A stretch of 64,000 nt of DNA. Origin: a virus. The position numbers and the translations under genes were made by a program. The stretch lies in IMG/VR virus record IMGVR_UViG_3300030104_005963; one strand, written 5' to 3'. Shown here piece by piece: positions 9,339-58,428 of this stretch. The notes under the pieces are model-generated. The model worked only from the letters and a program-made list of their open reading frames with translations. It did not search any database and was not told the DNA's origin. Within the stretch, counting starts at the first letter, position 1; each line of letters opens with the position of its first letter.

Positions 9339-10685
9339 ATGTCGAAGTGTAAGACAGGTTACTATTACTGTTATACTGACAAAAAATGTAAACCAATCTC
9401 TAAAGGTTTAAAAGTCACTGCCAGATTTTCTGGTGGTGGAAGAGAACCTGAAGAAGTTGGCATTGATAAACCGCTAAATGGAAATGGAAATCACTCAAAT
9501 GGCAATGGAAATGGGAGCGGGATCTCTAATGGTGGCTCTAATGGAGGCGTCAGTGAAGGATCGCTTCATAAATGGTTTAAGGGATCCAAATCAAAAGATG
9601 GTAAAGGTGGATGGGTTAATGTCGTCACAGGTGGGACTTGCGCCAGTGATAAACCGGGAGAGGGAACACCAAAATGTGTTTCGTCAGCAAAACGAGCAAG
9701 TATGAGTAAGGCAGAAAGACTTTCTGCTGCCAGAAGAAAAAAGAAAGCAGACCCAGGACAACAACAAAAATCTGGTGCCGCAAAACCAACTTATGTCTCT
9801 ACAGATAAGAAAAAAATGAAAAAAGAAGAAGTAGAAGTAACTGAAGCAAAGGACAAAAAAGGTAAGGGTAGTGGTACAAAAGACGACTGTTATCATAAGG
9901 TAAAGTCCAGATATAGTGTATGGCCTTCTGCATATGCCTCAGGTGCCCTTGTAAAGTGCCGTAAGGTTGGTGCTGCTAATTGGGGTAATAAGTCTGAATC
10001 TGTGGATTACTCGAACTGGAGAGATGACTTTAAGGCAATGAATTATGAGTTCATCGATCTCATTAAACCAGAACCTTTGAATAATGAGCAGATTGATGAA
10101 GGACAAAAATGTTGGAAGGGTTATGAAAAGAAAGGAACCAAAAAAATGTTTGGTAAAACCTATAATAATTGTGTAAAAAAAGAAGAAACTGAAGTAAAGG
10201 AGAGTCATAAAAATCCTGAAAGTGTAAAAGGTATTGCTAAAGAATTGGATAAAGCAGTTGAAATGCATAAGAGTCAAGCAAAAAGACTTAGGAAAGCTGG
10301 TGTATCTGAAGGCAAATCTGATGGTGATCCTTGCTGGGATACTCATAAGCAAGTAGGTATGAAGAAAAAGAATGGTAGAATGGTTCCTAATTGTGTTCCA
10401 AAAGAAGAATTTTCTGATTGGAGATCCGAAATTAAAGAGGGAGCTGCCTGGACAAAAAAGTCTGGTAAAAATGCTTCAGGTGGATTAAATGAAAAAGGTC
10501 GTAAGTCTTATGAAAGAGAGAATCCTGGTTCAGATCTAAAAGCACCATCTAAAAAAGTTGGCAATAAAAGAAGAGCATCATTCTGTGCAAGAATGAAAGG
10601 TATGAAAAAGAAACTTACTTCTGCCAAAACAGCAAATGATCCAGATAGCAGAATCAATAAATCTTTGAGAGCTTGGAATTGTTAA
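9339..10685 (+). CDS. Modular Lys-rich protein between the terminase genes (candidate internal-head polyprotein)
   Basis: 448-aa ORF of short basic modules; two CW...NCV repeats. Confidence 0.75.
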   Translation: MSKCKTGYYYCYTDKKCKPISKGLKVTARFSGGGREPEEVGIDKPLNGNGNHSNGNGNGSGISNGGSNGGVSEGSLHKWFKGSKSKDGKGGWVNVVTGGTCASDKPGEGTPKCVSSAKRASMSKAERLSAARRKKKADPGQQQKSGAAKPTYVSTDKKKMKKEEVEVTEAKDKKGKGSGTKDDCYHKVKSRYSVWPSAYASGALVKCRKVGAANWGNKSESVDYSNWRDDFKAMNYEFIDLIKPEPLNNEQIDEGQKCWKGYEKKGTKKMFGKTYNNCVKKEETEVKESHKNPESVKGIAKELDKAVEMHKSQAKRLRKAGVSEGKSDGDPCWDTHKQVGMKKKNGRMVPNCVPKEEFSDWRSEIKEGAAWTKKSGKNASGGLNEKGRKSYERENPGSDLKAPSKKVGNKRRASFCARMKGMKKKLTSAKTANDPDSRINKSLRAWNC

Positions 10686-10694
10686 TTTGATGTT

Positions 10695-12338
10695 ATGAGT
10701 GAAGTATATCTTGGTAATCCTAATTTAAAAAAAGCAAATACACCGATCCAATTCACTGAAGAACAAATAATTGAGTTTCTCAAGTGCAAAGAAGATCCGG
10801 TGTATTTTGCTAATAAGTATATAAAAATTGTTTCTCTTGATGAGGGTCTAACGCAATTTCATCCATATGACTTTCAAGAAAAGTTAATTAATAATTTTCA
10901 TAATAACAGATTTAATATCTGTAAGATGCCAAGACAGACTGGTAAATCTACTACGGTAGTATCTTACCTTTTACATTATGCAGTATTTAATGATAGTGTA
11001 AATATTGGTATCCTGGCAAACAAAGCAGCTACTGCAAGAGAATTGTTGCAAAGATTGCAAACTGCTTATGAGAACTTGCCTAAATGGATGCAACAGGGTA
11101 TATTATCCTGGAACAAAGGATCTATGGAGTTAGAAAATGGCAGTAAGATATTGGCAGCTTCTACGTCTGCAAGTGCTGTCCGAGGCATGTCGTTTAACAT
11201 TCTCTTCCTCGACGAATTTGCCTTCGTTCCAAACCATGTTGCAGACTCGTTCTTTGCCTCTGTTTATCCTACTATTACTTCTGGTAAAAACACCAAGGTA
11301 ATTATCGTATCTACTCCACACGGTATGAATCATTTCTACCGTATGTGGCATGATGCCGAAAGAAGTAAAAATGAGTATATTCCCACCGATGTTCATTGGT
11401 CAGAAGTTCCTGGTAGAGATGAAAAATGGAAGGCAACAACTATTGCCAATACTTCAGAACAACAGTTCAAGGTTGAGTTTGAATGTGAGTTCTTAGGTTC
11501 GGTTAATACTCTTATTAATCCAGCGAAATTAAAAAACCTTGTATACGAGAATCCCATAAAAAGAAATGCCGGATTAGATATTTACGAAGATCCTCAGGAG
11601 AATCATGAATATCTTCTGACAATTGACGTGGCAAGAGGAATAGGAAATGATTATTCGGCATTTATTGTTTTTGACATAACACAGTTTCCGTATAAGATAG
11701 TAGCAAAATATAGAAATAATGAAATTAAACCTATGCTATTCCCAAATATTATTAATGATGTTGGGAAGGGATATAATAATGCATGGATATTAGTAGAAGT
11801 AAATGATATTGGAGATCAAGTGGCTTCTATCATGCACTATGATTTAGAATACGATAATATTCTTATGGCAGCAATGAGGGGTCGTGCTGGACAAGTCGTG
11901 GGAACAGGATTTAGTGGTAAAAAATCACAACTTGGTGTCAGAATGACTGCAGCAGTTAAAAAGTTAGGATGCTCCAACTTAAAAACTATGATGGAGGATG
12001 ATAAGTTACTGACTACAGATTATGAAATTATATCAGAACTTACCACATTTGCACAGAAAGGAAATTCTTTTGAGGCAGAAGAAGGATGTAACGATGATTT
12101 GGCAATGTGTCTTGTAATATTTTCATGGTTAGTAGCACAAGATTATTTTAAAGAAATGACAGAGAATGATGTTCGTAAAAGAATATATGAAGAACAAAGA
12201 AATCAAATAGAACAGGATATGGCACCTTTTGGATTTATAGAAACTGGATTTGAAACTAGTAACTTTGTAGATGCCGATGGAGATAGATGGTATGCAGACG
12301 AATATGGTGATAGATCTTATATGTGGGATTATATGTAA
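10695..12338 (+). CDS. gp17: Terminase large subunit gp17
   Basis: Walker A RQTGKST, Walker B LFLDEFAF, nuclease DVARG and DDLAM motifs. Confidence 0.97.
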   Translation: MSEVYLGNPNLKKANTPIQFTEEQIIEFLKCKEDPVYFANKYIKIVSLDEGLTQFHPYDFQEKLINNFHNNRFNICKMPRQTGKSTTVVSYLLHYAVFNDSVNIGILANKAATARELLQRLQTAYENLPKWMQQGILSWNKGSMELENGSKILAASTSASAVRGMSFNILFLDEFAFVPNHVADSFFASVYPTITSGKNTKVIIVSTPHGMNHFYRMWHDAERSKNEYIPTDVHWSEVPGRDEKWKATTIANTSEQQFKVEFECEFLGSVNTLINPAKLKNLVYENPIKRNAGLDIYEDPQENHEYLLTIDVARGIGNDYSAFIVFDITQFPYKIVAKYRNNEIKPMLFPNIINDVGKGYNNAWILVEVNDIGDQVASIMHYDLEYDNILMAAMRGRAGQVVGTGFSGKKSQLGVRMTAAVKKLGCSNLKTMMEDDKLLTTDYEIISELTTFAQKGNSFEAEEGCNDDLAMCLVIFSWLVAQDYFKEMTENDVRKRIYEEQRNQIEQDMAPFGFIETGFETSNFVDADGDRWYADEYGDRSYMWDYM

Positions 12339-12559
12339 TGGATTTTGATAGTCAGATAAATTTAGAACATCTGCTTTTTTATGATAGAGAATGTAGAACT
12401 TGCCATAAGACAAAAAATTTATTGGAAGACTTTTATCTTATAAGAAAAAATAGAGGAGCACTACCATCTTCATATTCCTATGAGTGTAAAGAGTGTACTA
12501 TCGATAGAGTAAAAGGTAATAAAAAATGTAGTAATGTTTGGGAATATCCTGATTGGTAG
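12338..12559 (+). CDS. Small zinc-finger protein
   Basis: ATG overlaps the gp17 stop (TAATG); CRTC...CKEC pairs. Confidence 0.65.
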   Translation: MDFDSQINLEHLLFYDRECRTCHKTKNLLEDFYLIRKNRGALPSSYSYECKECTIDRVKGNKKCSNVWEYPDW

Positions 12560-12637
12560 TTCATGCATCGTTTCCCCACTGAAAATACCCCTTTTCCTAA
12601 ATATTTTTAGGTAATTTGGATTGCGAGGAAAAGCAAG

Positions 12638-14860: not shown

Positions 14861-14877
14861 TTTAGAGGTTTAAAACA

Positions 14878-15477
14878 ATGGCAGAACGTTTACAACGAGA
14901 GACAATTCCTTTAAGGAAAATTAGTGATTTTAAATCTAAATTAACTGGTGGTGGTGCTAGACCCAATTTATTTGAAGTTGTCTTAGCATTTCCTACATTA
15001 GTTTCACCAGTTAATGAAAATGAAGTTTTACAAAAATCAAGATTTTTGGTTAAGGCAGCAGCACTGCCCTCATCAACAATCGCACCTGTAGAAATTCCAT
15101 TCAGAGGTCGTATTTTAAAGGTTGCTGGAGACAGAACCTTTGAAACTTGGACAATCACAGTCATCAATGATACTGATTTTATGATCAGATCAGCGATGGA
15201 AAAATGGATGAATACTATCAACAAGTTAGAAGATGCTACAGGAATTACAAATCCTGTTGATTATCAATCTGATGCATTAGTTCACCAACTTGATCGTGAT
15301 GGATCTACTCTTAGATCTTACAAGTTCAAGTCAATCTTCCCAACAAATATTTCAACAATTGATCTTAGTTACGAAACTACTGATACTATTGAAGAATTTA
15401 CTGTAGAAATGCAGGTTCATTATTGGGAAGCATTTAAGGGATCATCTGCTGCGGCTAATGGAGAAGATATTTCTTAA
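14878..15477 (+). CDS. gp19: Tail tube protein gp19
   Basis: GGARPNLFEV, FRGRILKVAGDRTFETWTITV. Confidence 0.96.
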   Translation: MAERLQRETIPLRKISDFKSKLTGGGARPNLFEVVLAFPTLVSPVNENEVLQKSRFLVKAAALPSSTIAPVEIPFRGRILKVAGDRTFETWTITVINDTDFMIRSAMEKWMNTINKLEDATGITNPVDYQSDALVHQLDRDGSTLRSYKFKSIFPTNISTIDLSYETTDTIEEFTVEMQVHYWEAFKGSSAAANGEDIS

Positions 15478-17203: not shown

Positions 17204-17371
17204 ATGGACGACGTACTAGATTTGATTGCTTCAGGTGCTTCTGCATCTGAAATTAGTGATAAAATTAAAAATGCTTTATATGATAAGGCATCTTCAAAAA
17301 TTGATGGTATTCGTGCTGATGTCGGTGCCTCCATGTTTGATAACTCAGAAGAATCACAAGAGGAAGAATAA
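17204..17371 (+). CDS. Small acidic protein, gp67-like prohead core candidate (absent from ORF track)
   Basis: 55-aa ORF MDDVLDLIASG...SQEEE read from the DNA; follows a late promoter; stop overlaps the next ATG. Confidence 0.7.
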   Translation: MDDVLDLIASGASASEISDKIKNALYDKASSKIDGIRADVGASMFDNSEESQEEE

Positions 17372-17640
17372 TGGCAAGAACTTTATGTAAAGGTGCTGAG
17401 GCAGCTTGCCCAACAACAACTGGAGCTGCTACTAGTTTTTCAGAAGCGACAGTTGTTCGTTTAGTTAATGGTCATAGTAGCGCACACCTTGTTACGGTTG
17501 TCGAAACTCAAAGTGGAACTGTAGTTGGATCTTTTACAATGCCAGCAGGAACTGTAGAATATCTTGAAAAAAATCCAACTCAGTGTGTGTTTGCTGCAAA
17601 TGCCGGAGTATTGGGATCAAAAGTAGGATTTACCGCATAA
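17371..17640 (+). CDS. Hypothetical protein in head module
   Basis: 89-aa ORF between portal and protease. Confidence 0.75.
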   Translation: MARTLCKGAEAACPTTTGAATSFSEATVVRLVNGHSSAHLVTVVETQSGTVVGSFTMPAGTVEYLEKNPTQCVFAANAGVLGSKVGFTA

Positions 17641-17644: not shown

Positions 17645-18295
17645 ATGAAACTTATCACAGAAGAAATTTCAAATGTAAAAATTATTACCGAGGGCAAAGG
17701 TTCTGGTAAAAAATTATATATTGAAGGAGTATTTCTCCAAGGAAACATTAAAAACCGCAATGGTAGAATGTATCCTATGGAAACTCTTGCCCGTGAGGTA
17801 AAAAGATATAATGAAACTTTTGTGAATAAGGGTCGTGCTCTTGGAGAACTTGGTCATCCTGACGGACCAACTGTAAATCTTGATAGAGTTTCTCATAAAA
17901 TTACTTCTCTCTCAGAAGACGGAAATAATTTTAAAGGAAAAGCACAAATTCTTAATACCCCAATGGGTAAGATTGCATCTTCTCTTCTTGATGAAGGTGT
18001 AATGCTCGGAGTTTCTTCTCGTGGTGTTGGTTCACTTAAAACAACTAGTGAAGGTCATAAAGTTGTTGGCGAAGATTTTATGTTAGCAACAGCTGCTGAT
18101 ATTGTGGCAGACCCTTCTGCTCCCGATGCTTTTGTTTCCGGAATTATGGAAGGAAAAGAGTGGGTTTGGGAAGGAGGAATTCTTCGTGAACAACTTGCAG
18201 AAACCACTGCAAAGAGAATTAATACATTAGTTGATCAAAGAAGACTTGAAGAGCATAAGTTGAATTTATTCAACGATTTTTTATCAAATCTTTAA
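17645..18295 (+). CDS. gp21: Prohead protease gp21
   Basis: NRNGRMYP, ALGELGHP, GVSSRGVGS, DIVADPSAPDA. Confidence 0.96.
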   Translation: MKLITEEISNVKIITEGKGSGKKLYIEGVFLQGNIKNRNGRMYPMETLAREVKRYNETFVNKGRALGELGHPDGPTVNLDRVSHKITSLSEDGNNFKGKAQILNTPMGKIASSLLDEGVMLGVSSRGVGSLKTTSEGHKVVGEDFMLATAADIVADPSAPDAFVSGIMEGKEWVWEGGILREQLAETTAKRINTLVDQRRLEEHKLNLFNDFLSNL

Positions 18296-18336: not shown

Positions 18337-19443
18337 ATGTCCGTTGGTAACGATTTACAAGAAATGGAAAACGTAGTAACTAAAGGTGCTGCCAAAGCTG
18401 ATCCGATGCCAAAGATGTCCGGTTCTACTCCCGGACAACCTGCAGTTGAAGATCTTGGTGGACCTACCCCAGAAAATTACAAAGTCGATGACGATTCCGC
18501 TAAACTAAAAGAACCAAAAGTTGCAACTGTTAAAGACATTGTTAACAAAGGTGCTGGTAAAGCAGATCCTATGCCTTCAGGAATGAAGGAAGAGGAAGAA
18601 GTCGAAGGTGATGTAGTAGCCGAGGAAGAAGAAACTTCAACCGAAGAAGTAGTTGCTGAAGAAGAAACTACTGAGGAAGAAGTTGTAGAAGAAGAAATCA
18701 TCGAAGATGATACTCCTTCTATCGAAGAGGATATCGAAGCACTTATTGCTGGTGAAGAACTCTCCGAAGAATTCCAAGAAAAAGCACGTACAATTTTTGA
18801 AGCAGCCATCAAAACTAAGGTTGCTGAAATGAAAGAAGAGGTACAAAAAGAGTACGAAGTATCTCTGACTGAAGAAGTTGCCAACCTCAAGTCTGAATTA
18901 ACCGAAAGAGTTGATTCTTATCTTGAGTATGTTGCTCAAGAATGGTTGACCGAAAATCAACTCTCGGTTGAGCAAGGACTTAAAACTGAAATGACCGAAT
19001 CATTCCTTACTGGAATGAAGAGTCTTTTTGAAGAACATTATGTATCAATCCCTGAAGAGAAATATGATGTACTCAATAGTATGGTAGAAAAACTTGATGA
19101 GATGGAAGATAAACTCAACGAGCAAATCAATAAAAATATTGCTTTAAACAAAAGATTGGCTGAGTCGGTTGCAGATGTAATTCTTGCAGATGTATCCGAA
19201 GGACTTGCAGTATCTCAAAAGGATAAGCTTGCTTCTCTTGCCGAAAATGTTGAGTTTGATGGTGATCAATCCTATCGTGAAAAACTGGTAACTCTTAGAG
19301 AAGCATATTTCTCCTCTAATACCGGTGTTCAAGAGAACAAATCGGAAACAATTTCTGAAGAGACCGAAACAGGTCATCAGGTAGAGACTTCTACTATGAT
19401 GGAATCGTATCTCCAGACATTGAATAGAGTTTCCAAGAAGTGA
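18337..19443 (+). CDS. gp22: Prohead core scaffold gp22
   Basis: Acidic coiled coil, LSEEFQEKARTIFEAA, position before gp23. Confidence 0.93.
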   Translation: MSVGNDLQEMENVVTKGAAKADPMPKMSGSTPGQPAVEDLGGPTPENYKVDDDSAKLKEPKVATVKDIVNKGAGKADPMPSGMKEEEEVEGDVVAEEEETSTEEVVAEEETTEEEVVEEEIIEDDTPSIEEDIEALIAGEELSEEFQEKARTIFEAAIKTKVAEMKEEVQKEYEVSLTEEVANLKSELTERVDSYLEYVAQEWLTENQLSVEQGLKTEMTESFLTGMKSLFEEHYVSIPEEKYDVLNSMVEKLDEMEDKLNEQINKNIALNKRLAESVADVILADVSEGLAVSQKDKLASLAENVEFDGDQSYREKLVTLREAYFSSNTGVQENKSETISEETETGHQVETSTMMESYLQTLNRVSKK

Positions 19444-19493: not shown

Positions 19494-20867
19494 ATGCTGC
19501 AAATGCCTTCTCAAGAGGCTCTGCAGGAGAAGTGGGCACCTATCCTCAATCATGAGGGTATGGATTCAATCAAAGATAACCATCGTGCGATGGTTACTGC
19601 TCAACTCCTGGAGAACCAAGAACAAATGCTCAAGGAAGAAAGAGAATTTCTTTCTGAGGCCCCAACCAATGCTACTGGTGCAAACATCAGTAATTTCGAT
19701 CCCGTTCTGATCTCTCTGATCAGACGTTCAATGCCTAACCTGGTTGCATATGACCTGGCTGGCGTACAACCAATGAATGGTCCTACCGGACTTATCTTTG
19801 CAATGCGTTCACGTTACACTTCACAGAGTGGAACTGAAGCATTCTTCAACGAGCCAGATTCCGGATTCTCTGCACAGAGAGAAGGTAATGATGCTACTCA
19901 AGGACCTTACAGCACTGGTTCTGACGATGATACCGTTGGTTTCGGTACTGCCGGTGCTCAAATTGGAAGCAATCCTGCTGCTCTGAACCCAGAGTCAGAT
20001 GCAAATCAGGGTACATACACAGTCGGTCAGGGTATGACCACTGCTAATGCTGAAGGTCTTGGTGAATCTGGTAATGCTTTCAACGAGATGGCATTCTCAA
20101 TCGAGAAAGTCACCGTTACTGCCATGAGCAGAGCACTGAAAGCAGAGTATTCACTGGAACTGGCACAAGACCTCAAGGCTATTCATGGTCTGAATGCTGA
20201 GGCTGAACTCGCAAATATTCTCTCTACTGAGATTCTTGCTGAGATCAACCGTGAAGTCATCAGAACCATCTATAAGTCTGCTGAAGTCGGTGCTACTTTG
20301 AATACCGCAACTTCTGGTACTTTCGACCTCGACGTTGACTCTAACGGACGTTGGAGTGTTGAGAAGTTCAAGGGTCTTATTTTCCAAATGGAAAGAGATG
20401 CTAACCAGATTGCACAGAGAACTCGTAGAGGAAAGGGCAACATGATCCTCTGCTCTGCAGACGTTGCTTCCGCACTCACCATGGCTGGTGTACTTGATTA
20501 CACCCCTGCTCTGAATGCAAACCTCAATGTAGATGACACTGGTAACACCTTTGCTGGTGTTCTTGGTGGTAAGTTCCGTGTCTACATCGATCCTTATGCT
20601 GCTAACAATGCTGCTAACCAGTATTACGTAGCTGGTTATAAGGGTTCTTCACCTTATGACGCAGGACTCTTCTACTGTCCTTATGTTCCTCTCCAAATGG
20701 TTCGTGCCGTTGGTGAGAACACCTTCCAGCCAAAAATCGGGTTCAAGACTCGTTATGGCATGGTCGCTAACCCATTTGCCGAAGGCACCAATACAACCAA
20801 CACTGGTCGTATTACTGCCAGCAGCAACCGTTACTACAGACGTGTTAAGGTTGCCAACCTTATGTGA
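19494..20867 (+). CDS. gp23: Major capsid protein gp23
   Basis: GVQPMNGPTGLIFAMRSRY, RALKAEYSLELAQDLKAIHG, FQPKIGFKTRYG. Confidence 0.98.
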   Translation: MLQMPSQEALQEKWAPILNHEGMDSIKDNHRAMVTAQLLENQEQMLKEEREFLSEAPTNATGANISNFDPVLISLIRRSMPNLVAYDLAGVQPMNGPTGLIFAMRSRYTSQSGTEAFFNEPDSGFSAQREGNDATQGPYSTGSDDDTVGFGTAGAQIGSNPAALNPESDANQGTYTVGQGMTTANAEGLGESGNAFNEMAFSIEKVTVTAMSRALKAEYSLELAQDLKAIHGLNAEAELANILSTEILAEINREVIRTIYKSAEVGATLNTATSGTFDLDVDSNGRWSVEKFKGLIFQMERDANQIAQRTRRGKGNMILCSADVASALTMAGVLDYTPALNANLNVDDTGNTFAGVLGGKFRVYIDPYAANNAANQYYVAGYKGSSPYDAGLFYCPYVPLQMVRAVGENTFQPKIGFKTRYGMVANPFAEGTNTTNTGRITASSNRYYRRVKVANLM

Positions 20868-31177: not shown

Positions 31178-31420
31178 ATGTCTAGATTTGGAGATTTATT
31201 AGGTGGAAAAAAACCAGCAGCTGCTCCTGCACCTGAACCTGTTGTAGAAGAAGTTCTTGTTACTCCAGAAGAGGAAGTTCTTACTGAGGCAAGTCCTTTG
31301 GAGCAAATGAGTAAAAATGAACTTGAGGAGTATGGTAGAGAACTGGGAGTAGAACTTGATAGAAGACACAGTAGAAAAAAATTGATTAGTGAAATCAAAG
31401 AGGTACTGGACAATTCCTGA
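31178..31420 (+). CDS. Small protein with a C-terminal HeH/Rho-N-like helical motif
   Basis: LEQMSKNELEEYGRELGVELD; GATAAATA upstream. Confidence 0.7.
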   Translation: MSRFGDLLGGKKPAAAPAPEPVVEEVLVTPEEEVLTEASPLEQMSKNELEEYGRELGVELDRRHSRKKLISEIKEVLDNS

Positions 31421-40029: not shown

Positions 40030-42530
40030 TGCGTTTTTATACTAATGTTCAAATGGTCGGGGATCACTTCTTGGTTCGTGGTTATGAAAATGGTCGCCAT
40101 TTTGCAACCCGTGAGAAGTTTTACCCGACTCTTTTTGTTGAGTCTAATAAGAAAACAAAGTATCAAACTCTACAAGGTGAATATGTAGAATCTATAGAAC
40201 CTGGAACCGTTCGTGATTGTCGTGAGTTTATCAAACGATATGACGGTGTAGATAACTTCAAGATTTATGGTAATGACCGATACATCTATCAGTATATTTC
40301 TGAGATGTATCCCGAAGAAGAAATTAAGTTCGATACTCAAAAGATTAAGATTGCCACCATTGATATTGAGGTTGCATCAGAGAACGGATTCCCCGATGTA
40401 GAATCTGCCGCCGAAGAAGTTCTTTTGATTACGATTCAAGATTACTCTACAAAACAGATTCGCACTTGGGGAAGGGGTCAATTTCTAAATAAACAAGAGA
40501 ACGTTATTTACAAGGGGTTTCGTACAGAATACGAACTGCTGACTGACTTTATTAACTGGTGGATGATTGAGGGAAATACTCCTGAAGTTGTTACTGGATG
40601 GAATAGTGAACTGTACGATATTCCATATTTGGTTCGTCGTATTGATCGCATTCTTGGTGAGAAACTCATGAAGAGACTTTCTCCATGGGGACTTGTAACT
40701 GAACGTGAAATTTACATTGTAGGTAGAAAAAATATTGCGTATGACATCGGCGGTGTCACTCAACTCGATTACTTGAATCTTTATAAGAAATTTACTTATA
40801 AGGCACAAGAATCTTATCGTCTTGATTATATTGCCAGTATTGAACTTGGGCAAAAGAAACTAGATCACTCTGAGTTTGATACTTTTAAAGACTTCTATAC
40901 TAAAGGGTGGCAGAAGTTTGTAGAGTATAACATTATTGACGTGGAACTTGTTGACCGAATGGAAGACAAGATGAAACTAATTGAACTTGCCATTACGATG
41001 GCGTATGATGCAAAGGCAAATTATGCCGATGTCTTTTCACAAGTTCGTATGTGGGATACAATCATCTATAATTATCTGAAGAAAAGAAACATTGTAATTC
41101 CTCCTAAAGAACGTTCTGATAAGGACTCAAAATATGCAGGTGCTTATGTTAAGGAACCGATTCCGGGAAAGTACGATTGGGTTGTGTCTTTTGACCTTAA
41201 TAGTCTCTACCCTCATCTTATTATGCAATACAACATCTCTCCAGAGACGTTACAGGATACCCGACACCCAAGTGCAACAGTTGATAAAATCCTTAATGAG
41301 GAACTAACATTTGAGATGTATAAGGACAGTGCGGTATGTGCTAATGGTGCCATGTATCGGAAGGATGTTCGTGGGTTCTTGCCAGAATTGATGGAGAAGA
41401 TCTATAAAGATCGAACCATTTATAAAAAGAAAATGCTTCAGGCAAAACAAGATTATGAAAAAACTCCAACGAAGGCACTGGAAAAGGAAATTGCCCGATG
41501 CAACAACATCCAGATGGCACGAAAGATTCAGCTCAACTCTGCATATGGTGCTATTGGTAATCAGTATTTTAGGTATTATAAACTGGCAAATGCTGAAGCA
41601 ATTACTCTCTCAGGTCAAGTTTCGATTCGATGGATTGAAAATCGTATGAACGGATACCTAAATAAACTTTTACAAACAGAGGGGGAGGATTATGTCATTG
41701 CATCTGACACTGACTCCATCTATCTTAATATGGGACCTCTTGTTGATAAATTTTTTAGTGGTAAGTCTGGCGATAAAACAGCAATTGTTTCGATACTTGA
41801 CAAGATCTGTGAAGACAAGTTGGAACCATTCATCGAACGATCTTATTCGGACCTTGCGGATTACGTTCAGGCATATGAACAAAAAATGATTATGAAGCGT
41901 GAAAATATCGCAGAACGTGGTATTTGGACCGCAAAGAAACGTTATATCCTTAATGTATGGAATAGTGAGGGAGTTCAATATTCTGAACCTAAACTCAAGA
42001 TGATGGGTATTGAGGCAGTTAAATCATCTACACCGGCACCTTGTCGTCAGATGATTAAAGATGGTCTGAAACTGATGATGAATGGTACTGAGGAGGATGT
42101 CATTAAATTTATTGATGACTGTAGGGTTAAGTTTAAGTCTCTTCCTCCAGAAGAAATTGCATTCCCTCGTTCAGTATCGGATGTGGTTAAGTACAAATCA
42201 CATTCCAGCATCTATGCAAAGGGAACACCTATTCACTGTCGTGGAGCACTTCTTTTTAACCACTATATAAAAGAACATAAATTGACTAATAAGTATTCCC
42301 TTATTAATAATGGTGAAAAGATTAAATTCATTTATCTAAAAAAACCAAATATTATCCAGGAAAATGTCATTTCATTTATCCAAGATTTTCCCAAAGAACT
42401 TGGTCTTGACAAGTACCTTGACTATGACTTACAATTTGAAAAGAGTTTTGTAGAACCACTCAAGGCAATTCTTGATGCCATTGGGTGGAATGTTGAAAAA
42501 ACCGTAAACTTAGAATTATTTTTTGCATAA
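40029..42530 (+). CDS. gp43: B-family DNA polymerase gp43
   Basis: IDIE exonuclease motif, SFDLNSLYPH, KIQLNSAYG, DTDS. Confidence 0.98.
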   Translation: MRFYTNVQMVGDHFLVRGYENGRHFATREKFYPTLFVESNKKTKYQTLQGEYVESIEPGTVRDCREFIKRYDGVDNFKIYGNDRYIYQYISEMYPEEEIKFDTQKIKIATIDIEVASENGFPDVESAAEEVLLITIQDYSTKQIRTWGRGQFLNKQENVIYKGFRTEYELLTDFINWWMIEGNTPEVVTGWNSELYDIPYLVRRIDRILGEKLMKRLSPWGLVTEREIYIVGRKNIAYDIGGVTQLDYLNLYKKFTYKAQESYRLDYIASIELGQKKLDHSEFDTFKDFYTKGWQKFVEYNIIDVELVDRMEDKMKLIELAITMAYDAKANYADVFSQVRMWDTIIYNYLKKRNIVIPPKERSDKDSKYAGAYVKEPIPGKYDWVVSFDLNSLYPHLIMQYNISPETLQDTRHPSATVDKILNEELTFEMYKDSAVCANGAMYRKDVRGFLPELMEKIYKDRTIYKKKMLQAKQDYEKTPTKALEKEIARCNNIQMARKIQLNSAYGAIGNQYFRYYKLANAEAITLSGQVSIRWIENRMNGYLNKLLQTEGEDYVIASDTDSIYLNMGPLVDKFFSGKSGDKTAIVSILDKICEDKLEPFIERSYSDLADYVQAYEQKMIMKRENIAERGIWTAKKRYILNVWNSEGVQYSEPKLKMMGIEAVKSSTPAPCRQMIKDGLKLMMNGTEEDVIKFIDDCRVKFKSLPPEEIAFPRSVSDVVKYKSHSSIYAKGTPIHCRGALLFNHYIKEHKLTNKYSLINNGEKIKFIYLKKPNIIQENVISFIQDFPKELGLDKYLDYDLQFEKSFVEPLKAILDAIGWNVEKTVNLELFFA

Positions 42531-46220: not shown

Positions 46221-47519
46221 ATGGCAAAAAGTCTCCTTGATACAGACCTTTATACTAAGGTAGTTACTGTTATCAACGACAACCTTTATGATCTGGGTAT
46301 GTCGATTGACGATAAAAGAACTGAAGGATCATACATTTATATTATGTGTGATGAGGATAGACTTGAAACTCAAGAATCCTTGGAAATGGAAATTGAAAGA
46401 ATTTCTGGACTCCGATGTAGTAGAAAATATGTAAAGTCAAAGTCATCAACTGATTTAACTGAGGTTGATGGTTTTAGCAAAAAAGTCAATATTGTATTTA
46501 AAAACACCAGGGGTGGGATGCAGGAAACCACCCTTAATTCTACTATTACTGAATTGTTCCCAGCGATTGCTTTTGAAGCGGGTGTCAGCACAAATCTTGA
46601 ACCTGCCGTGTTTTACAATAAACTTGTAGAAGCAAATAATCCAAAATTTGGTGCGTATAAAAATAAGAGTGCATATGAAGCTGGCAAACCTTTTTTAGAT
46701 AAAGCACCGACTTCTTCCAAGTTTGAAGAAAAAACAATTAATGCTCAGGCAATTACTAGATGGTTGATCGGTGAAAATAAAAGAAAAAAAATTGCAAAAG
46801 TTGTTTGGGGGTATCGTAATAACTTGAAACCAGAGGGAGTTGCACCTAATCATAAGGGAGATATTTTTGCTGTTTTTGATGATGGAAGTATTTTAGGCAT
46901 TTCTCTTAAAGCTGGTGGAGCAAAAACTGCTGAACCACAATTCAATAGTTATGTTAGACCTATCTTCACTTCTTTTGGAATGCTTAATGATTATACAAAA
47001 CTTGAAAAAAAATCATATGAAACTTTCTATAAAGGAATTCCCAATATAACTCAACAAAACACTTATGGAAAACAGACAATGACAAAGGTTATAGGTGCTT
47101 TTGAAAAGATGAATCCAAAACAATATGAAATGTTATATGATGCACAGTTGGAATTTGTTAGACAGTATATTTGTGATATGATGAATAAGTATCCAGTAAA
47201 GGCAAAAAATTGGTTACTTCGTGAAGTTGCTGCAGAACAGGAAGGAGTTCCTCTTATTGTTTTAAAAGCTGCTGGTAGTGATACACAAGTAATTAATGAT
47301 GAAAATATAATTAAAGATTGTGTTCAGACATCTAAAAAAGCAAATGGTATAAAGGCATATCCATCGAAGACATCAAAACAAAATTGGCATATTGATTTAA
47401 CTTGTAGAACACATACTACAACTTTAAATTTTTCAATTAGAACAAATAAAACTGGAATAAGTCATAAACTTGGACAATATATTAATCTTGCGGTCAAATT
47501 TAATGGTATAAAAAAATGA
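46221..47519 (+). CDS. Putative PD-(D/E)xK restriction-like nuclease
   Basis: TELFP...KGDIF...GISLK motif arrangement; TAAATAAATA upstream. Confidence 0.5.
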   Translation: MAKSLLDTDLYTKVVTVINDNLYDLGMSIDDKRTEGSYIYIMCDEDRLETQESLEMEIERISGLRCSRKYVKSKSSTDLTEVDGFSKKVNIVFKNTRGGMQETTLNSTITELFPAIAFEAGVSTNLEPAVFYNKLVEANNPKFGAYKNKSAYEAGKPFLDKAPTSSKFEEKTINAQAITRWLIGENKRKKIAKVVWGYRNNLKPEGVAPNHKGDIFAVFDDGSILGISLKAGGAKTAEPQFNSYVRPIFTSFGMLNDYTKLEKKSYETFYKGIPNITQQNTYGKQTMTKVIGAFEKMNPKQYEMLYDAQLEFVRQYICDMMNKYPVKAKNWLLREVAAEQEGVPLIVLKAAGSDTQVINDENIIKDCVQTSKKANGIKAYPSKTSKQNWHIDLTCRTHTTTLNFSIRTNKTGISHKLGQYINLAVKFNGIKK

Positions 47520-47746
47520 ACTCACAAATACTTGACTTGATAAAGTCCTTTGAACCGAATTCAAAAAATGGTAGAGATAATTATGAGCAACTTCTTATTC
47601 ATATCTATCATACTTTTGATAAAAGAATTAACTTCACAAAGTCTCAGACATTAAAAGATAAATATAAACATATGCGTCAAGGTGCATTAGAATACATTGT
47701 ATTGCACAAACAACAGGTAATAAGAGAATTAAGTAAAAGGAAGTGA
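47516..47746 (+). CDS. Hypothetical protein
   Basis: 76-aa ORF coupled to both neighbours. Confidence 0.65.
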   Translation: MNSQILDLIKSFEPNSKNGRDNYEQLLIHIYHTFDKRINFTKSQTLKDKYKHMRQGALEYIVLHKQQVIRELSKRK

Positions 47747-48903
47747 TGAAGAATTTTTTTCAATTTTTATCTGAATCAACTGCAGTCCAGCAGGCAAAAA
47801 GAATGGGACTGGTTGGTGATGGTCATGGTGGATGGTATGATAAGAAGGGTGAGTTTGTAGCAAAAACTGAGAAAGGACAACTTAAGTTTTATAATAAAAG
47901 GCAACGTGTTGGTAAACAAGATCCACCAAATACTGATACCGAGAAAAGATTATCTCAGGCAACTTCAAGTAGTGAAATTCAAGAACCACAAGGTCCGCCT
48001 GAAGTTGAAAAAACAAAAGGAACTTTGACCGTTGCTTTTGGTAGATTCAATCCTCCTACCACAGGACATGAAAAACTTTTGGATACAGTCGCATCAAGTT
48101 CTGATGAAGGTGACTATATTATTGTCCCATCACGTAGTCAGGATAAGAAAAAGAATCCTTTAGATCCTGATACTAAAGTTGAGATTATGAAACAAATGTA
48201 TCCTGGTCATAGTGGCAAAATTGTAAATGATCCTGGTAATAGAACAATTTTTGATGTACTGAAGAAAGCACATACTGATGGATATGCCGGAGTTCGTATT
48301 CTTGGTGGTGCAGATAGAGTAAAAGAATTTGAAAAACTAGCAAATGATTATAATGGTAAACTTTATAACTTTGATAATGTAGAAGTTCTTTCTGCTGGAG
48401 ATAGAGATCCTGATTCTGAAGGAACAGAAGGAATGTCTGCATCAAAACAAAGAAAGGCAGCTGCCGAAGGTGATTATAATTCTTTCAGAAAAGGTGTTCC
48501 GACATCTATGAACGATAAACAAGCAAAGGAGTTATATAATACTCTTCGTACTGCAATGGGTATTAAAGAAGGTTGGAGTCTTTGGCAAATTGCACCTAAG
48601 TTTGATTGGAAAAATCTTCGTGAAAATTTTGTAAAGAAAAACATTTACAGGGTTGGTGATATTGTAGAAAATCTCAATACTGGTCTGGTTGGTAAGATTA
48701 TTCGTAGAGGCACTAACTATCTTATCTGTGTCACCGAAGATGATATTATGTTTAAGTCTTGGATTAAAGATGTAACCGATGTGTCTGGTGTTCCTGCAAA
48801 TCAAAGAGAAGTTGGAACCGATGCTCTTCGTAAGTATGCAGAGACTATGGTGAAGGGTTCTAGTTGGGGCAGGCAATTCATAAATAAATATAAGAAAAAG
48901 TAA
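47746..48903 (+). CDS. HxGH-superfamily nucleotidyltransferase (cytidylyltransferase/NMNAT-like)
   Basis: VAFGRFNPPTTGHEKL, ILGGADR, MSASKQR. Confidence 0.85.
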   Translation: MKNFFQFLSESTAVQQAKRMGLVGDGHGGWYDKKGEFVAKTEKGQLKFYNKRQRVGKQDPPNTDTEKRLSQATSSSEIQEPQGPPEVEKTKGTLTVAFGRFNPPTTGHEKLLDTVASSSDEGDYIIVPSRSQDKKKNPLDPDTKVEIMKQMYPGHSGKIVNDPGNRTIFDVLKKAHTDGYAGVRILGGADRVKEFEKLANDYNGKLYNFDNVEVLSAGDRDPDSEGTEGMSASKQRKAAAEGDYNSFRKGVPTSMNDKQAKELYNTLRTAMGIKEGWSLWQIAPKFDWKNLRENFVKKNIYRVGDIVENLNTGLVGKIIRRGTNYLICVTEDDIMFKSWIKDVTDVSGVPANQREVGTDALRKYAETMVKGSSWGRQFINKYKKK

Positions 48904-48913
48904 TTGTCTTCAG

Positions 48914-50386
48914 ATGGATAAACCTGCACAACAGGCACCTGGTGCTAATGATAAAGTAAGAAAGGCTGCTAGACAGTTAGCATACGATGTTCGATATAAA
49001 GTAAAAGGTCAGTTTAAGGACGGACAAAAAACTGATCCTGCTTCACTGAAGCGTGCTTATATGCAGCAACTGGGTAAGTCTCCGGCACCTGGTCCTGTAA
49101 AGGCACTTGCTAAAAAGATGCTGATTGGCGAAGAATATGATTTTGTAAATCTTAATGATACTGCCAGTGATGCTGTTCTTAGTGTCTTTGAAAAAATCTT
49201 TGAAGGGGCAGAAGGAAGTAAGTATACTGTAAGAGTTAAGGATAAGAAAACTGGTAAGTCTTATCTTAGAAAAGCAGATCGTGCTAAGATTGCAGAACTG
49301 AGAAAGAATCCTAATATTGCTTCTGTAGAAATTGCCGGTAAGAGTGCTGCAGAACCTAGTACTTATGATAAGACTGGAAAGGGTAAGAAAGCTGCTAAAG
49401 ATTATGATGGTGATGGAAAAATTGAGTCTGGAACCGCAGAGTATATGGGTTCCAGAGATAAGGCCATTAAGAAGGCAATGGCAAAAGAAGAGTTTATTGG
49501 TGAAGTTGCCGAAGGTGAACAGAAGGAAAAGAAACTTGATATAATGAAGGGTAAGAATAAGGTTGTTGTAAATCCACCAATGAATGAGCAACAATCTGAG
49601 ATGGATAAATCCAAAACTGGACCTTCTCCAGAGGATAAGAAGCAACTTGACAATAAGAAGAAGATGCTTCAGAAAAAAATGATGATGCAGAGGCAGACAA
49701 TGCAAATGCAAAGACAGGGAAGACTTCCTTTAAATTATAGTGAAGAAAATGAAGGAAATGGTGCATGTTTAAAATGTGGAGAGATTCATGAAGGATCATG
49801 TGAACCCAAATCCAAAGAAATGAAGGATGCTCCTGATTCTAGAGGAAATTATGCCATGATGAACTTGATTAAAAATAAATTGAGAGCAAGAGGACTTAAG
49901 ATGTCTTATGATATGGAGGGAGATTTAGTTGATGAAGCAATGCGTCCTGGTGAACGTCAAAAAAAAGTAGCAGCAAAAGTGCATGATCCATCTGCATCAT
50001 CTAAAACTCGTGCAGTTGCCCATAATGTGGCAGTCCGTAATGATGGACCTGGAACTCCTGGTTATGAAAAAAAATCAACTGGCGGAAAGGGTGCTAGATT
50101 TGCAGGATATGGTGATCAAGGTGCTGGTAATAAAGCACGTCGTCGTGCAGGACAAGAACCACTGAGAGGTGATACTCGTAAGGAATCAACCGAAGATTCT
50201 TTAAGAGATCGTCGTATGGAACGTGGTGGTGTTGATGGAAACGTAAGATATGATAAATCTGCTAAGAATGTAGCAATTGGTTCTGCCAAGAAAAAATATG
50301 ATGGAATGTCTGCACTTGAAAAAGTGAAGGCAGATATTCGTGCCAAGCACGGTAAAGGTGCTATTATGGACACCAAGAAGAAGTAA
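48914..50386 (+). CDS. Modular Lys-rich hypothetical protein
   Basis: 490 aa; KDYDGDGKIESG module; CATAAATAAATA upstream. Confidence 0.75.
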   Translation: MDKPAQQAPGANDKVRKAARQLAYDVRYKVKGQFKDGQKTDPASLKRAYMQQLGKSPAPGPVKALAKKMLIGEEYDFVNLNDTASDAVLSVFEKIFEGAEGSKYTVRVKDKKTGKSYLRKADRAKIAELRKNPNIASVEIAGKSAAEPSTYDKTGKGKKAAKDYDGDGKIESGTAEYMGSRDKAIKKAMAKEEFIGEVAEGEQKEKKLDIMKGKNKVVVNPPMNEQQSEMDKSKTGPSPEDKKQLDNKKKMLQKKMMMQRQTMQMQRQGRLPLNYSEENEGNGACLKCGEIHEGSCEPKSKEMKDAPDSRGNYAMMNLIKNKLRARGLKMSYDMEGDLVDEAMRPGERQKKVAAKVHDPSASSKTRAVAHNVAVRNDGPGTPGYEKKSTGGKGARFAGYGDQGAGNKARRRAGQEPLRGDTRKESTEDSLRDRRMERGGVDGNVRYDKSAKNVAIGSAKKKYDGMSALEKVKADIRAKHGKGAIMDTKKK

Positions 50387-50715
50387 TGCCTGCCGTATCT
50401 AAGGCACAACAAAGGTTTATGGGTATGGTGTATGCCGCCAAAAAAGGTGACATGCCCAACCCGTCACCTGAAGTTGCAAAGGCAGCAGAATCTATAAAGA
50501 AAAAAGACGCTAAAGATTTTGCATCAACAAAACATAAAGGTCTTCCAGAAAAGAAAGTTGCAAAAGAAGCAAAAGATTTTTCTCAGAGAGATAAAATTTT
50601 AAAGAGAGCAAAATCTCTCCATAAACATCTATATAAAAATCTTCATAAGAAAGATACTTCTGGTGATGTAAATGAAAGTAAAAAAACGTTTAAAGAGTTT
50701 ATAGGCGATATATAG
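50386..50715 (+). CDS. DUF3008-like protein
   Basis: MPAVSKAQQRFMGM...DFASTKHKGLPEK. Confidence 0.8.
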   Translation: MPAVSKAQQRFMGMVYAAKKGDMPNPSPEVAKAAESIKKKDAKDFASTKHKGLPEKKVAKEAKDFSQRDKILKRAKSLHKHLYKNLHKKDTSGDVNESKKTFKEFIGDI

Positions 50716-50736
50716 TTTAGATATTGGTATCGAACT

Positions 50737-50940
50737 ATGTTAACATTTCTTCTCCCACTTGCGTCCAAAATTATTTCTGATGCAGTTGCCAAGATTCCGG
50801 AAAATGAAGAACTTGGTGAGAAACTTATTGAGATCTGTCTTGTTATTCTTGCTAAGGCAGTTAAGTTGACTAAAACAGATATGGATGATCAACTACTTGA
50901 AGTTGTGACAAAGGCAATCAAAACTAGAGAAGAGGAATAA
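50737..50940 (+). CDS. Small helical hypothetical protein
   Basis: 67-aa ORF, KTDMDDQLLEVV. Confidence 0.7.
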   Translation: MLTFLLPLASKIISDAVAKIPENEELGEKLIEICLVILAKAVKLTKTDMDDQLLEVVTKAIKTREEE

Positions 50941-50942
50941 AG

Positions 50943-50950
50943 TATAAATA
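50943..50950 (+). promoter_or_regulatory. Late promoter TATAAATA
   Basis: Exact consensus upstream of 50981. Confidence 0.75.
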
Positions 50951-50980
50951 TCATTATAAAGAATTATAGGGTAAGGAAAC

Positions 50981-51493
50981 ATGTCTCTTTGGGGCAATAA
51001 AGATACTGTCTATTCGACTGGAAAAGTAAACTGCACTACTGCTGGAGTACTTACGAAGCAGAGTGGTAGTATTGCTTGGACATCAGGTAATGGTGTAAAG
51101 GTTGGTCAAGTGGTAACATTAGCAACTGATGGTGCTGGTCCTGGTCAAGGTGTAATTTTGAGTATAGATTCTGCTACTCAATTAACACTTACCAATCTTG
51201 ATCTTCCTGGTGCATTTACAGACGTTGATTATGAAATTCGTGAAACACCTGTGTCTGAAGTCAAAGGTGGAAGTTTTGCTATTAATGAAATATATGGTGT
51301 AGATACTACCGAGCAAAGTGTTGCTAATGCGGCATCAGGCGAGGCACGCAAATATGCACCTGCTCATGCCGGTTGGGTTGGTATTACAACTTATACAGAT
51401 AATCACGGAAATCTGAGAGTTAAGTCAGAAACATTAGTTGCCGGAAGCACCATCACCGGTGATGCGGAAGATACTAAGTTCCCAGATAGCTGA
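50981..51493 (+). CDS. Probable virion structural protein
   Basis: MSLWG...AHAGWV...RVKSETLVA; late promoter. Confidence 0.7.
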   Translation: MSLWGNKDTVYSTGKVNCTTAGVLTKQSGSIAWTSGNGVKVGQVVTLATDGAGPGQGVILSIDSATQLTLTNLDLPGAFTDVDYEIRETPVSEVKGGSFAINEIYGVDTTEQSVANAASGEARKYAPAHAGWVGITTYTDNHGNLRVKSETLVAGSTITGDAEDTKFPDS

Positions 51494-51501
51494 TATGTGA
51501 T

Positions 51502-52458: not shown

Positions 52459-52470
52459 AAGTCTTTTGTA

Positions 52471-56907: not shown

Positions 56908-56998
56908 TAGTATAAGAGCATATAAAGAAGCAGCACTATCTGATTCACATATGTTTGGTGAATATGATGGATATCAAGCATACAAGGGGGACGAGTAG
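56870..56998 (+). CDS. Small ORF overlapping the nrdB 3' end
   Basis: 42 aa MSKETPSQDLVYDSIRAYKEAA...; GGAGG at 56854; ends in the terminator stem. Confidence 0.45.
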   Translation: MSKETPSQDLVYDSIRAYKEAALSDSHMFGEYDGYQAYKGDE

Positions 56999-57011
56999 TC
57001 CCTCTTTTTTT
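56985..57011 (+). terminator. Intrinsic terminator after the nrdB region
   Basis: AGGGGGAC-GAGTA-GTCCCTCT plus T run. Confidence 0.8.
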
Positions 57012-57018
57012 ATAAATA
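57011..57018 (+). promoter_or_regulatory. Late promoter TATAAATA
   Basis: Exact consensus directly after the terminator. Confidence 0.75.
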
Positions 57019-57045
57019 TCCATATATGGATACAGAATAAGAAAA

Positions 57046-58428
57046 ATGTCCTTGTCTCAAAAACAATTTGCCGACTTCAGAAAAGTTTGTGAAGAATTTA
57101 ATGAAGTAGAAGAAATTATCGAAGAAGAACTCGTTCATGAAATTTGTGATGAACTGATTGAAGAACTTATTGAAGAAGGATACTCCGAAGAAGAAGCAAT
57201 TGAAGTTGTCGATGAGGCAACTGATCTTTATATTGATGAGACACTTTGTGAAGTAAGTGACTCATATTACGACAGTGCTGTTAGAGCATCGAAGAAATCT
57301 GCAAGTGGTATTGACAAGGCAGCAAGACAGAAGAGAAGAGCAGGTCAGGTTAGATATGCTAAGAGAAAGGCAGGGGATGCTCTCAAAGGTGCTGTCGGTG
57401 CTGTTAAAGGTGCTGTTGATAGTGTTAAGAAGAAAGCATCAGCTGCTAAAGCAGGTGTTCAGATTGCAGGATCAATTGCTAAAGATGAGGCAAGGAGAGC
57501 AGGACGTAAAGCAGCATTATCTGTTAGTAAAGCACCAGAAAAGGCAAAGGCAGCAGCATCTGATGCTAAGAAAAAAGCAAAGAGTGGGATCAAAGGATTT
57601 ATTAAACGTCAGGCACAGAAGGTTGTCAATCGTATGAGTGAAGAGATTGAAGCACTTAAGGCAACCGGTCTCTTTACTGCGAAGGAGATTAAAGCAATTG
57701 TAGAATCAGAGAATGTTTATGAAGCAATCACCAGTGAAAAGGGTAAAGCAAAAATGAAATCTATGATTGATGCTCGCACCACTGATTCTGGTAGAGCAAA
57801 GTCAGGTAAAGGTCAAAACGTTAAAGACATTAAGCACATTGGTCGTGCTAATGTTGATGGTTATGGTGGAACACCTCCCAATCTAAAGGTTGCTAAGAAT
57901 CCAGTAAAATCTAACTTTACTGGTCTCAATAGTGGAACCGGCAACAAAGCAAAAAGAAGAGCAGACGCCTTAACAAAGAATGAAGAACTTAAGGCAACTG
58001 GTAAGTTCTCTGATAAGGAGATTGAAGCAATCATGGAAGCAGACTCACTTGCAGCAATGCAAGCAAGAAGAGAAAAGCGTCTTGCCGCACAAAGAAAGCG
58101 TGAAGGCACTACTGCAACTGGAAGGGACTTTGGTCACGACTATTCCCTAACTCCTGCTCAACAAAAAACAAGAAGAGATGCTGAGTTTAAAGCAGGAATC
58201 GGAACTAAGAAAGAAGAAGTTGAGGTTGATGAAGCAATGAGTTCTTATGATCGCAACCGTAAGAGAGCAGCACAGAGAGCAGCAGATAGAAATGCCGCCA
58301 GAGCTGCCGGAAAGACCGGTGTAGTTCCTGGAGTCGGTTATGTGTCTCCTAGAAAAGAAAGAGAAACATACGTTGATTCTGCGGGCACTACCCGTCATAA
58401 GTCTGGTGCAAAGATGCCAAAGGACTGA
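57046..58428 (+). CDS. Modular protein with acidic N-terminus and basic modules
   Basis: 460 aa; duplicated LKATGxFxxKEIxAI motif. Confidence 0.75.
   Translation: MSLSQKQFADFRKVCEEFNEVEEIIEEELVHEICDELIEELIEEGYSEEEAIEVVDEATDLYIDETLCEVSDSYYDSAVRASKKSASGIDKAARQKRRAGQVRYAKRKAGDALKGAVGAVKGAVDSVKKKASAAKAGVQIAGSIAKDEARRAGRKAALSVSKAPEKAKAAASDAKKKAKSGIKGFIKRQAQKVVNRMSEEIEALKATGLFTAKEIKAIVESENVYEAITSEKGKAKMKSMIDARTTDSGRAKSGKGQNVKDIKHIGRANVDGYGGTPPNLKVAKNPVKSNFTGLNSGTGNKAKRRADALTKNEELKATGKFSDKEIEAIMEADSLAAMQARREKRLAAQRKREGTTATGRDFGHDYSLTPAQQKTRRDAEFKAGIGTKKEEVEVDEAMSSYDRNRKRAAQRAADRNAARAAGKTGVVPGVGYVSPRKERETYVDSAGTTRHKSGAKMPKD

Follow-up and report, generated by a model that had tools for sequence, protein, structure and literature searches.

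Candidate head-internal proteins with gp21-type cleavage sites in a T4-like cyanomyovirus

The 64,000-nucleotide stretch of IMG/VR virus record IMGVR_UViG_3300030104_005963 (hereafter the window, meaning the whole stretch at its full length) contains a dispersed group of genes whose products carry sites resembling those cut by the T4 prohead protease gp21. The reading we favor, with a probability of roughly 0.6, is that the products of g47746, g9339 and g57046, probably also that of g50386 and, less surely, that of g48914 (each gene is named by its first nucleotide) are made late, enter the core of the prohead and undergo cleavage by gp21 after Glu, at the predicted motif [I/V/L/M]-x-E↓[G/A/K/S], where the arrow marks the cut. 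The motifs, their conservation, predicted flexible linkers between modules, an intact protease and late-promoter-like boxes form the observed basis. A first-pass annotation had proposed an internal-head cargo, matured by a gp21-type protease, that comprised g9339, g31178, g47746, g48914 and g57046. All five genes lie where it placed them, each with at least one [ILV]xE[AGS] site; conserved sites, a rule at module junctions and homologues in virions lend strong comparative support to the proposal for g47746, g9339 and g57046, whereas g48914 is a weak member and g31178 is not supported. The genes concerned are as follows.

47746..48903, + strand: g47746, nucleotidyltransferase of the PPAT/NMNAT superfamily (PF01467, phrog_395), with the decapeptide MKNFFQFLSE↓S (nucleotides (nt) 47746-47775) and a second site, IKE275↓G (nt 48562-48570)
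9339..10685, + strand: g9339, Lys-rich multi-module protein between terS (gp16) and terL (gp17), with a C-terminal DUF6321 (PF19846, motif sites)
57046..58428, + strand: g57046, late modular protein with a leader, an acidic module and then basic modules (hydrophobic-x-Glu↓[AGS] sites)
50386..50715, + strand: g50386, small basic protein starting MPAVSKAQQRFMG, from the same module pool by homology and absent from the first-pass list
48914..50386, + strand: g48914, late basic protein adjoining the nucleotidyltransferase, a weak candidate (four sites, box upstream)
31178..31420, + strand: g31178, small acidic late protein with an isoelectric point (pI) of 4.7 and a helix-extended-helix-like C-terminus

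In the proposed scheme, the candidate proteins would be made late and incorporated into the scaffold core, the enzyme by means of its decapeptide and the module strings through other determinants. A gp21-type serine protease would then cut at hydrophobic-x-Glu junctions. In g47746 it would remove the tag and probably also split off the C-terminal domain at IKE275↓G, while g9339 and g57046 would behave as 'beads on a string', cutting of which would free approximately 6-7 modules, mostly basic and 34-160 residues long. Both the enzyme and the basic beads would remain with the DNA in the head and may be ejected into the host along with it, with a possible role in DNA packing or host takeover. We would put at even odds the broader proposition that this is a combinatorial 'polyprotein' form of the T4 internal-protein system, in which shuffled basic mini-proteins are fused, loaded and cut in the prohead, enzymes are co-loaded by a portable ten-residue tag kept since the common ancestor with T4, and a variable payload is delivered with the DNA.

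The window has a G+C content of about 35%, and every sizeable open reading frame (ORF) lies on the + strand. Its head genes follow the T4-like order, namely the gp20 portal gene (15518), two small ORFs, gp21 (17645), gp22 (18337) and gp23 (19494), and the nearest isolate is Synechococcus phage S-SKS1, with about 79% DNA identity over the head module. Because of this T4-like module and of S-SKS1 as nearest isolate, we assign the window to an uncultured T4-like cyanomyovirus with a complete head module, which includes the following features.

17204-17371 and 17371-17640, + strand: two small ORFs that occupy, between gp20 and gp21, the place of T4 gp67/gp68 (the second matches phrog_19805)
17645..18295, + strand: prohead protease of gp21 type (Peptidase_S77), which would do the processing (PF03420, 127.7 bits; phrog_207)
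18337..19443, + strand: scaffold core protein gp22, serving as positive control as a known substrate of the protease (PF25623; phrog_237)
19494..20867, + strand: gp23 major capsid protein with the propeptide site FLSE55↓APTN at nt 19647-19658 (PF07068, 503.7 bits; alignment to T4 gp23 chains)

In an alignment with T4 gp21 (PDB 5JBL), two Ala residues of the crystallised chain stand opposite His (GELGHPD) and Ser (GVSSRG) of the window's protease; we take these Ala to be inactivated catalytic residues, in which case His and Ser would be kept here. The PF03420 match and these two residues, which made up the triad check, identify a gp21-type (S77) protease. Two sites, LITE6↓E and IITE16↓G, occur at the N-terminus of the protease itself, and the gp68-like ORF at 17371-17640 carries SFSE25↓A. 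In gp23, the motif FLSE↓APTN had been noted at the position equivalent to the T4 site, and FLSE55↓A does correspond to the T4 propeptide site FLTE65↓A (PMC5694885), though it lies about 10-13 residues nearer the conserved core. By these motifs, gp23, gp21 and the gp68-like protein show the same kind of site as the candidates, which counts in favor of gp21 processing.

Among the candidates, g47746 is well supported as predicted tagged and protease-processed cargo. In the T4 IPIII tag MKTYQEFIAE, residues 4 and 7 serve targeting and residues 8 and 10 processing, with Asp10 blocking processing (PMC9026906). The sequence MKNFFQFLSE agrees with that tag at all four functionally mapped positions (4, 7, 8 and 10), and it fits the T4-type pattern, in which a propeptide 10-19 residues long ends in Glu, carries aromatic side chains at 4 and 7 and is aliphatic at 8. 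An N-terminus of the form MK-x-F-x-x-F-[LIF]-x-E was present in 79 of 80 IMG/VR homologues. In an alignment of 34 homologues, M1, K2, F7, E10, E275 and G276 were invariant and F4 reached at least 90%, while local alignments showed the two sites to be kept in 68/68 and 69/69 homologues. The same tag is found at the start of divergent enzymes whose downstream architecture differs, such as S-SCSM1 ORF91 (MKSFLQFLKE↓A), S-SZBM1_140 (MRFRQFIIE↓A) and that of S-H34 (MKGFSNFLIE↓A); the enzymes of S-CAM1 and RaK2 carry no leader, their first residues already belonging to the catalytic core. When every ORF start in the window was scanned for tags, g47746 and one hit at 42530 were returned; the latter was dismissed as chance, the gene being most likely UvsX by synteny.

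The enzyme family of g47746 was assigned by profile (PF01467, 30.5 bits against a cut-off of 21), by the signature GRFNPPTTGH (a TxGH variant, with G99-H108 invariant) and by fold, the core matching PPAT, NaMNAT and NMNAT in Foldseek with probability 1.00 (Rossmann-like fold), all of which place it among the cytidylyltransferase-like HxGH nucleotidyltransferases (PF01467). The AlphaFold2 model gave low confidence for residues 1-8, a small domain at 11-54, a disordered linker at 56-81 and a confident core at 88-272; confidence fell again just past E275, and the C-terminal beta domain was weak. Both sites are located at the edges of low-confidence segments of this model.

The motifs and models also give good support to g9339 and g57046 as predicted strings of mostly basic modules with protease-type junctions. 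In g9339, six hydrophobic-x-Glu junctions occur after residues 73, 169, 254, 288, 324 and 367, delimiting predicted fragments of 34-96 residues with pI values of 8.0-10.6, and the last of the modules is DUF6321 (PF19846; residues 376-446, 80.3 bits against a cut-off of 28.5). AlphaFold2 predicted folded beads at residues 1-23, ~75-133, 256-283, 293-320, 330-356 and 383-448, and the intervening segments, with a predicted local distance difference test score (pLDDT) below 50, hold all six sites. E73 was invariant in 31 homologues despite extensive gain, loss and reordering of modules. The family's most conserved module spans residues ~170-254 (9846-10100) and includes an invariant block, C184...N217, containing WPSAYASGALVKCRK; since its pLDDT is about 30 in the AlphaFold2 model despite this conservation, its folding may depend on a partner, a metal or disulfides.

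In g57046, sites follow residues 44, 57, 220, 226, 331 and 396, and five of the six are kept in at least 93% of aligned homologues. The protein opens with a leader of 16 residues that has VCE↓E at its end, can be aligned to MSLSQKQYGDLRSLYE↓S in relatives and only loosely resembles a T4-type tag. A PF08640 (U3_assoc_6) match in this protein (27.2 bits against a cut-off of 24.7) was discarded as spurious, as it falls in a Lys/Ala-rich stretch. The earlier statement that the sites stand at short basic modules applies to g9339, g48914 and g57046, most fragments of which have a pI of 8-10.7, and fails for the acidic g31178.

The arrangement of modules in homologues offered a further view of these junctions. 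For each module, we counted the distinct upstream contexts in which hydrophobic-x-Glu occurred within 6 residues, the baseline being 14.7%. The motif was present in every context of five modules, namely LHKWF (23/23), CWKGY (56/56), MSSYDRN (12/12), RLPAKT (15/15) and GWxLW (36/36), with binomial p values from 1e-10 to 1e-47 against the baseline. DUF6321 had it in 22 of 39 contexts, the remainder showing a hydrophobic residue at P4, and the CYHKV module was uninformative for this count because its anchor lies about 13 residues from the junction. When the six modules were pooled into 163 contexts, which are distinct and not phylogenetically independent, Glu stood at P1, the P3 residue was I/V/L/M/F in 150 (92%; background 23.5%), P3 or P4 was hydrophobic in 163/163, and P1' was G, A or K in 159. 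The pooled P3/P1/P1' rule is that of T4 gp21.

A regular junction could also arise if the proteins were virion components that stay uncut, with hydrophobic-x-Glu acting as a linker, an N-terminal cap or a shuffling cassette within intact multi-domain chains, for example, for DNA binding or decoration. The motif always accompanies its downstream module and may therefore belong to the module itself or to a shared linker cassette, the linker KKEE-(V/F)-E-(V/L/I)-x-E is found repeatedly in both g9339 and g57046, g9339 has no recognisable targeting tag, and the published mass spectra hold no hint of processing. Nevertheless, six modules unrelated in sequence and predicted fold obey one and the same P3/P1/P1' rule, conservation is limited to these three positions without any cassette at the DNA level, and the sites fall in predicted flexible linkers outside the folded beads. 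Phages that lack the protease bear on the same question. DUF6321 occurs as a stand-alone ORF of 81-93 residues in P-SCSP1d, KBS-P-1A, HTVC024P, HTVC027P and Pra-JY27, which are phages of other types, and there it begins at about the predicted cut (MAKSPAWTRK... compared to E↓GAAWTKK...). No hydrophobic-x-Glu element precedes DUF6321 in these five ORFs, and no Peptidase_S77 match was found in the five genomes, whereas the positive controls S-SCSM1 and S-SZBM1 did match. With these observations on either side, we consider uncut chains, the main rival reading, unlikely.

Motif frequency was compared to background with 300 composition-preserving shuffles per protein, using [ILV]xE[AGS] and testing roughly 85 ORFs. 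Three candidates exceeded their shuffles, namely g9339 (6 sites observed, 0.99 expected, p<0.004), g57046 (6 observed, 1.95 expected, p=0.013) and g48914 (4 observed, 1.14 expected, p=0.017), while g47746 (2 observed, 0.85 expected) and g31178 (1 observed, 0.69 expected) were not enriched. The five candidates together carry 19 sites against 5.6 expected, and all other proteins of the window remain at expectation (47 observed, 48.4 expected). The comparison with background that had been named as a check on the proposal was therefore favorable for three genes and not for the other two. For the [IL]xE motif, g57046 had 10 occurrences against 3.75 expected, and the known substrates gp21 and gp22, serving as positive controls, were enriched in the shuffle test; gp22 had 17 [IL]xE occurrences against 7.7 expected, a number reached by 0/300 shuffles. 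Proteins rich in Glu and Lys and of low complexity hold many hydrophobic-x-Glu triplets, and the sites could be due to chance, as could be argued from the lack of enrichment in g31178 and g47746, from the poorly kept sites of g48914 and from a few unrelated ORFs, such as 4840 and 33029, which still reach p of about 0.01-0.02 among those tested. That explanation is very hard to credit given that composition-preserving shuffles leave p<0.02 for three genes, that the junctions of five modules are occupied in 100% of contexts against 14.7%, and that key sites are kept in 68/68, 69/69 and 27/27 cases.

Regarding expression, NATAAATA boxes are located 31-35 nt upstream of 31178, 48914 and 57046, and the same spacing of 30-40 nt is found before gp20, the gp67-like gene, gp22 and 50981. 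Of all 22 copies of NATAAATA, 12 sit 20-50 nt ahead of a start, where about one would be expected. The form TATAAATA occurs 32 nt upstream of 17204 (the gp67-like gene), 39 nt upstream of gp22, 38 nt before 50981 and at 57011, 35 nt upstream of g57046, while GATAAATA lies 32 nt upstream of 31178. A late-promoter-like sequence had been claimed for four genes. The claim stands for 31178, 48914 and 57046, which have the box at the distance of about 30-40 nt seen in T4-like late genes and can be called late on this sequence pattern; g47746 has NATAAATA at a non-canonical 89 nt, within the preceding ORF. No NATAAATA box was found before 9339, which starts 3 nt after gp16. A terminator-like hairpin (56980-57018; GGGGGAC-GAGTA-GTCCCTC, then T7) directly precedes the TATAAATA box of g57046, suggesting an independent late transcription unit after nrdB.

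Relatives with characterised virions supply indirect evidence at the protein level, drawn from whole purified particles. In S-SCSM1, mass spectrometry yielded 45 virion proteins (PMC9602691), and ORF29, ORF91, ORF92, ORF93 and ORF95 are marked as such (PMC9602691 and its record). We found ORF29 to be a homologue of g9339, ORF91 of g47746 (52% identity), ORF93 of g50386 and ORF95 of g50981, while ORF92 shares residues 18-203 of g57046. The enzyme g47746 is also 40% identical to S-SZBM1_140, with a common genomic neighborhood, and this cytidylyltransferase was detected in S-SZBM1 virions together with the adjacent ORF139 (PMC9146016). Virions of S-CREM2 contained ORF154 and its neighbors (PMC10665884), and those of S-CBWM1 an NMNAT-like protein according to published accounts.

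The detected proteins could instead be abundant late proteins foreign to the virion, with host-takeover or metabolic functions, carried over into particle preparations, the decapeptide then serving, e.g., translation or folding. The S-CREM2 authors allow for contamination by highly expressed proteins (PMC10665884), and the enzyme gene sits among replication genes with its NATAAATA box at 89 nt. We nevertheless regard carry-over as quite improbable: the enzyme was detected in CsCl-purified virions of three independent T4-like cyanophages, the neighboring block of S-SCSM1 (ORF89-93, 95 and 97) is virion-positive, and the decapeptide equals the T4 tag at the four functionally mapped positions.

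The genes at 46221-51493 form a block of late or virion type within the replication region, after gp41 and MazG and before primase and NrdAB. Its counterparts in S-SCSM1, ORF91-93 and ORF95, are positive by mass spectrometry, as are ORF89 and ORF90 upstream, for which no homologue was found in the window. ORF89 of S-SCSM1 (L259:2358-3329), a virion protein by mass spectrometry, has the tag-like leader MDSKTFNSLSE↓A, and likewise ORF30 (L001:4542-4862), which directly follows the g9339 homologue of that phage, has MKTFKQFMSE↓S.

The remaining candidates differ in standing. The small basic protein g50386 probably belongs to the cargo set: it is 88% identical over 57 residues to S-SCSM1 ORF93, and in contigs L097 and L103, proteins of the g9339 family carry its module as their N-terminal bead. 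Membership of g48914 is weakly supported by its motifs and position. Its sites were kept in 18/26, 3/34, 2/6 and 8/14 aligned homologues (9-69%), and, together with its closest relatives, it lacks the leader MSNKVFEE↓A or MDKNIFEE↓G carried by most homologues. Genes in the same position, S-SCSM1 ORF92 and S-SZBM1 ORF139, encode virion proteins (PMC9602691, PMC9146016); at the blastp level, no homologue of g48914 was found in S-SCSM1, and only its C-terminal module matches S-SZBM1 (S-SZBM1_194), for which no mass-spectrometry evidence was seen. The acidic g31178 is probably outside the system because it shows no motif enrichment and no virion evidence in addition to its acidity. Its VLTE↓AS site is kept in about half of the homologues, only the closer ones, and no homologue was found in S-SCSM1 or S-SZBM1, the two proteome-characterised phages searched. 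Conservation in homologues, another check proposed at the outset, held for g47746 and for most sites of g57046, was poor for g48914 and reached about half for g31178. The protein itself is widely conserved in cyanophages, with an invariant MS(R/K)FGDL N-terminus, a Pro/Ala linker and the C-terminus ELEEYGRxLGIELDRRHS. A weak match to an inhibitor-of-protease family (phrog_1051, E=0.008), confined to the helix-extended-helix-like motif, was rejected as a sign of relationship.

Several points weigh against processing by gp21 and loading into the head. Both the cleavage and the head-internal location are inferred for every candidate. A T4-type N-terminal tag is absent from g9339 and g48914, as it is from g31178, so that the first two would have to enter the prohead by other means. 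Sites 288 and 324 of g9339 are kept in fewer than half of the aligned homologues, about a third of the DUF6321 junctions have their hydrophobic residue at P4 and not P3, and the shared ancestry of the 163 contexts and the travel of the motif with its module both lessen the force of the junction rule. The enzyme has a third junction-like site, which reads KDVxE↓[AS] in at least 90% of homologues; its Glu is replaced by Asp at residue 345 of g47746 (48778-48780), and because Asp blocks processing in T4, the C-terminal tail may stay attached in this phage. Finally, the published virion mass spectrometry consisted of tryptic searches, and the reservation of the S-CREM2 authors about abundant proteins applies.

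If the proposal is true, it would provide a mechanism for the presence of NMNAT-like enzymes and proteins of unknown function in purified cyanophage virions, extend the T4 capsid-targeting and gp21 rules, studied in coliphages, to one of the ocean's most abundant virus groups, and give a first working hypothesis for very large unannotated cyanophage families, DUF6321 and several PHROGs of unknown function among them. Since the cut sites are predicted to the residue, the idea is directly testable, and the conserved portable tag is a possible tool for loading proteins into cyanophage heads. The principle of a capsid targeting sequence combined with gp21 is already known in T4, as is multi-site processing of head proteins in phiKZ-like phages (PMC5694885). 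A tag carried by an enzyme of a cyanophage, precursors built as bead strings of freely shuffled modules and the fused or stand-alone forms that track the protease appear undescribed: the consulted passages of PMC9602691, PMC9146016 and PMC10665884 make no mention of a tag or of processing, and literature searches on the capsid targeting sequence in cyanophages surfaced only the T4 review, those on DUF6321 nothing, those on prohead-protease cleavage in cyanophages nothing relevant and those on N-terminal sequencing of cyanophage gp23 nothing usable.

When compared to known systems, the closest parallel is offered by the T4 internal proteins IPI, IPII, IPIII and Alt, with which the candidates share a 10-residue tag (aromatic residue at 4, Phe7, aliphatic residue at 8, Glu10), the L/I-x-E rule, basic cargo, an enzyme within the cargo (a nucleotidyltransferase where T4 has Alt) and the head module gp20-gp67/68-gp21-gp22-gp23. 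In contrast to T4, most of the cargo here would derive from multi-module precursors, two of which have no T4-like tag, the genes are dispersed and not gathered in one internal-protein locus, and the system is a proposed one. Since no PHROG or Pfam match to the internal-protein or Alt families was found for the five proteins, the claim is that they work like T4 internal proteins, not that they belong to those families. The virion NMNAT-like proteins and cytidylyltransferases of S-SCSM1, S-SZBM1, S-CREM2 and S-CBWM1 are the nearest reported counterparts of the enzyme, and the papers report their presence only and leave contamination open. The phages phiKZ, 201phi2-1 and SPN3US likewise have many head-internal proteins with several Glu sites and paralogues with conserved N-terminal propeptides (PMC5694885). 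Their protease belongs to the S80 family, their motif is S/A/G-x-E, their propeptides exceed 100 residues and the proteins are different ones (PMC5694885), whereas the sites here are of the T4-type hydrophobic-x-E kind and the predicted products are many small beads. Likewise, the T4 core proteins gp22, gp67 and gp68 are single chains cut at many L/I-x-E sites in the prohead (PMC5694885), and gp22 of the window has the same motif excess. The T4 core fragments, however, leave the head as largely acidic scaffold debris, whereas the modules described here are conserved, mostly basic mini-domains that elsewhere also have genes of their own, a point in favor of their being functional products.

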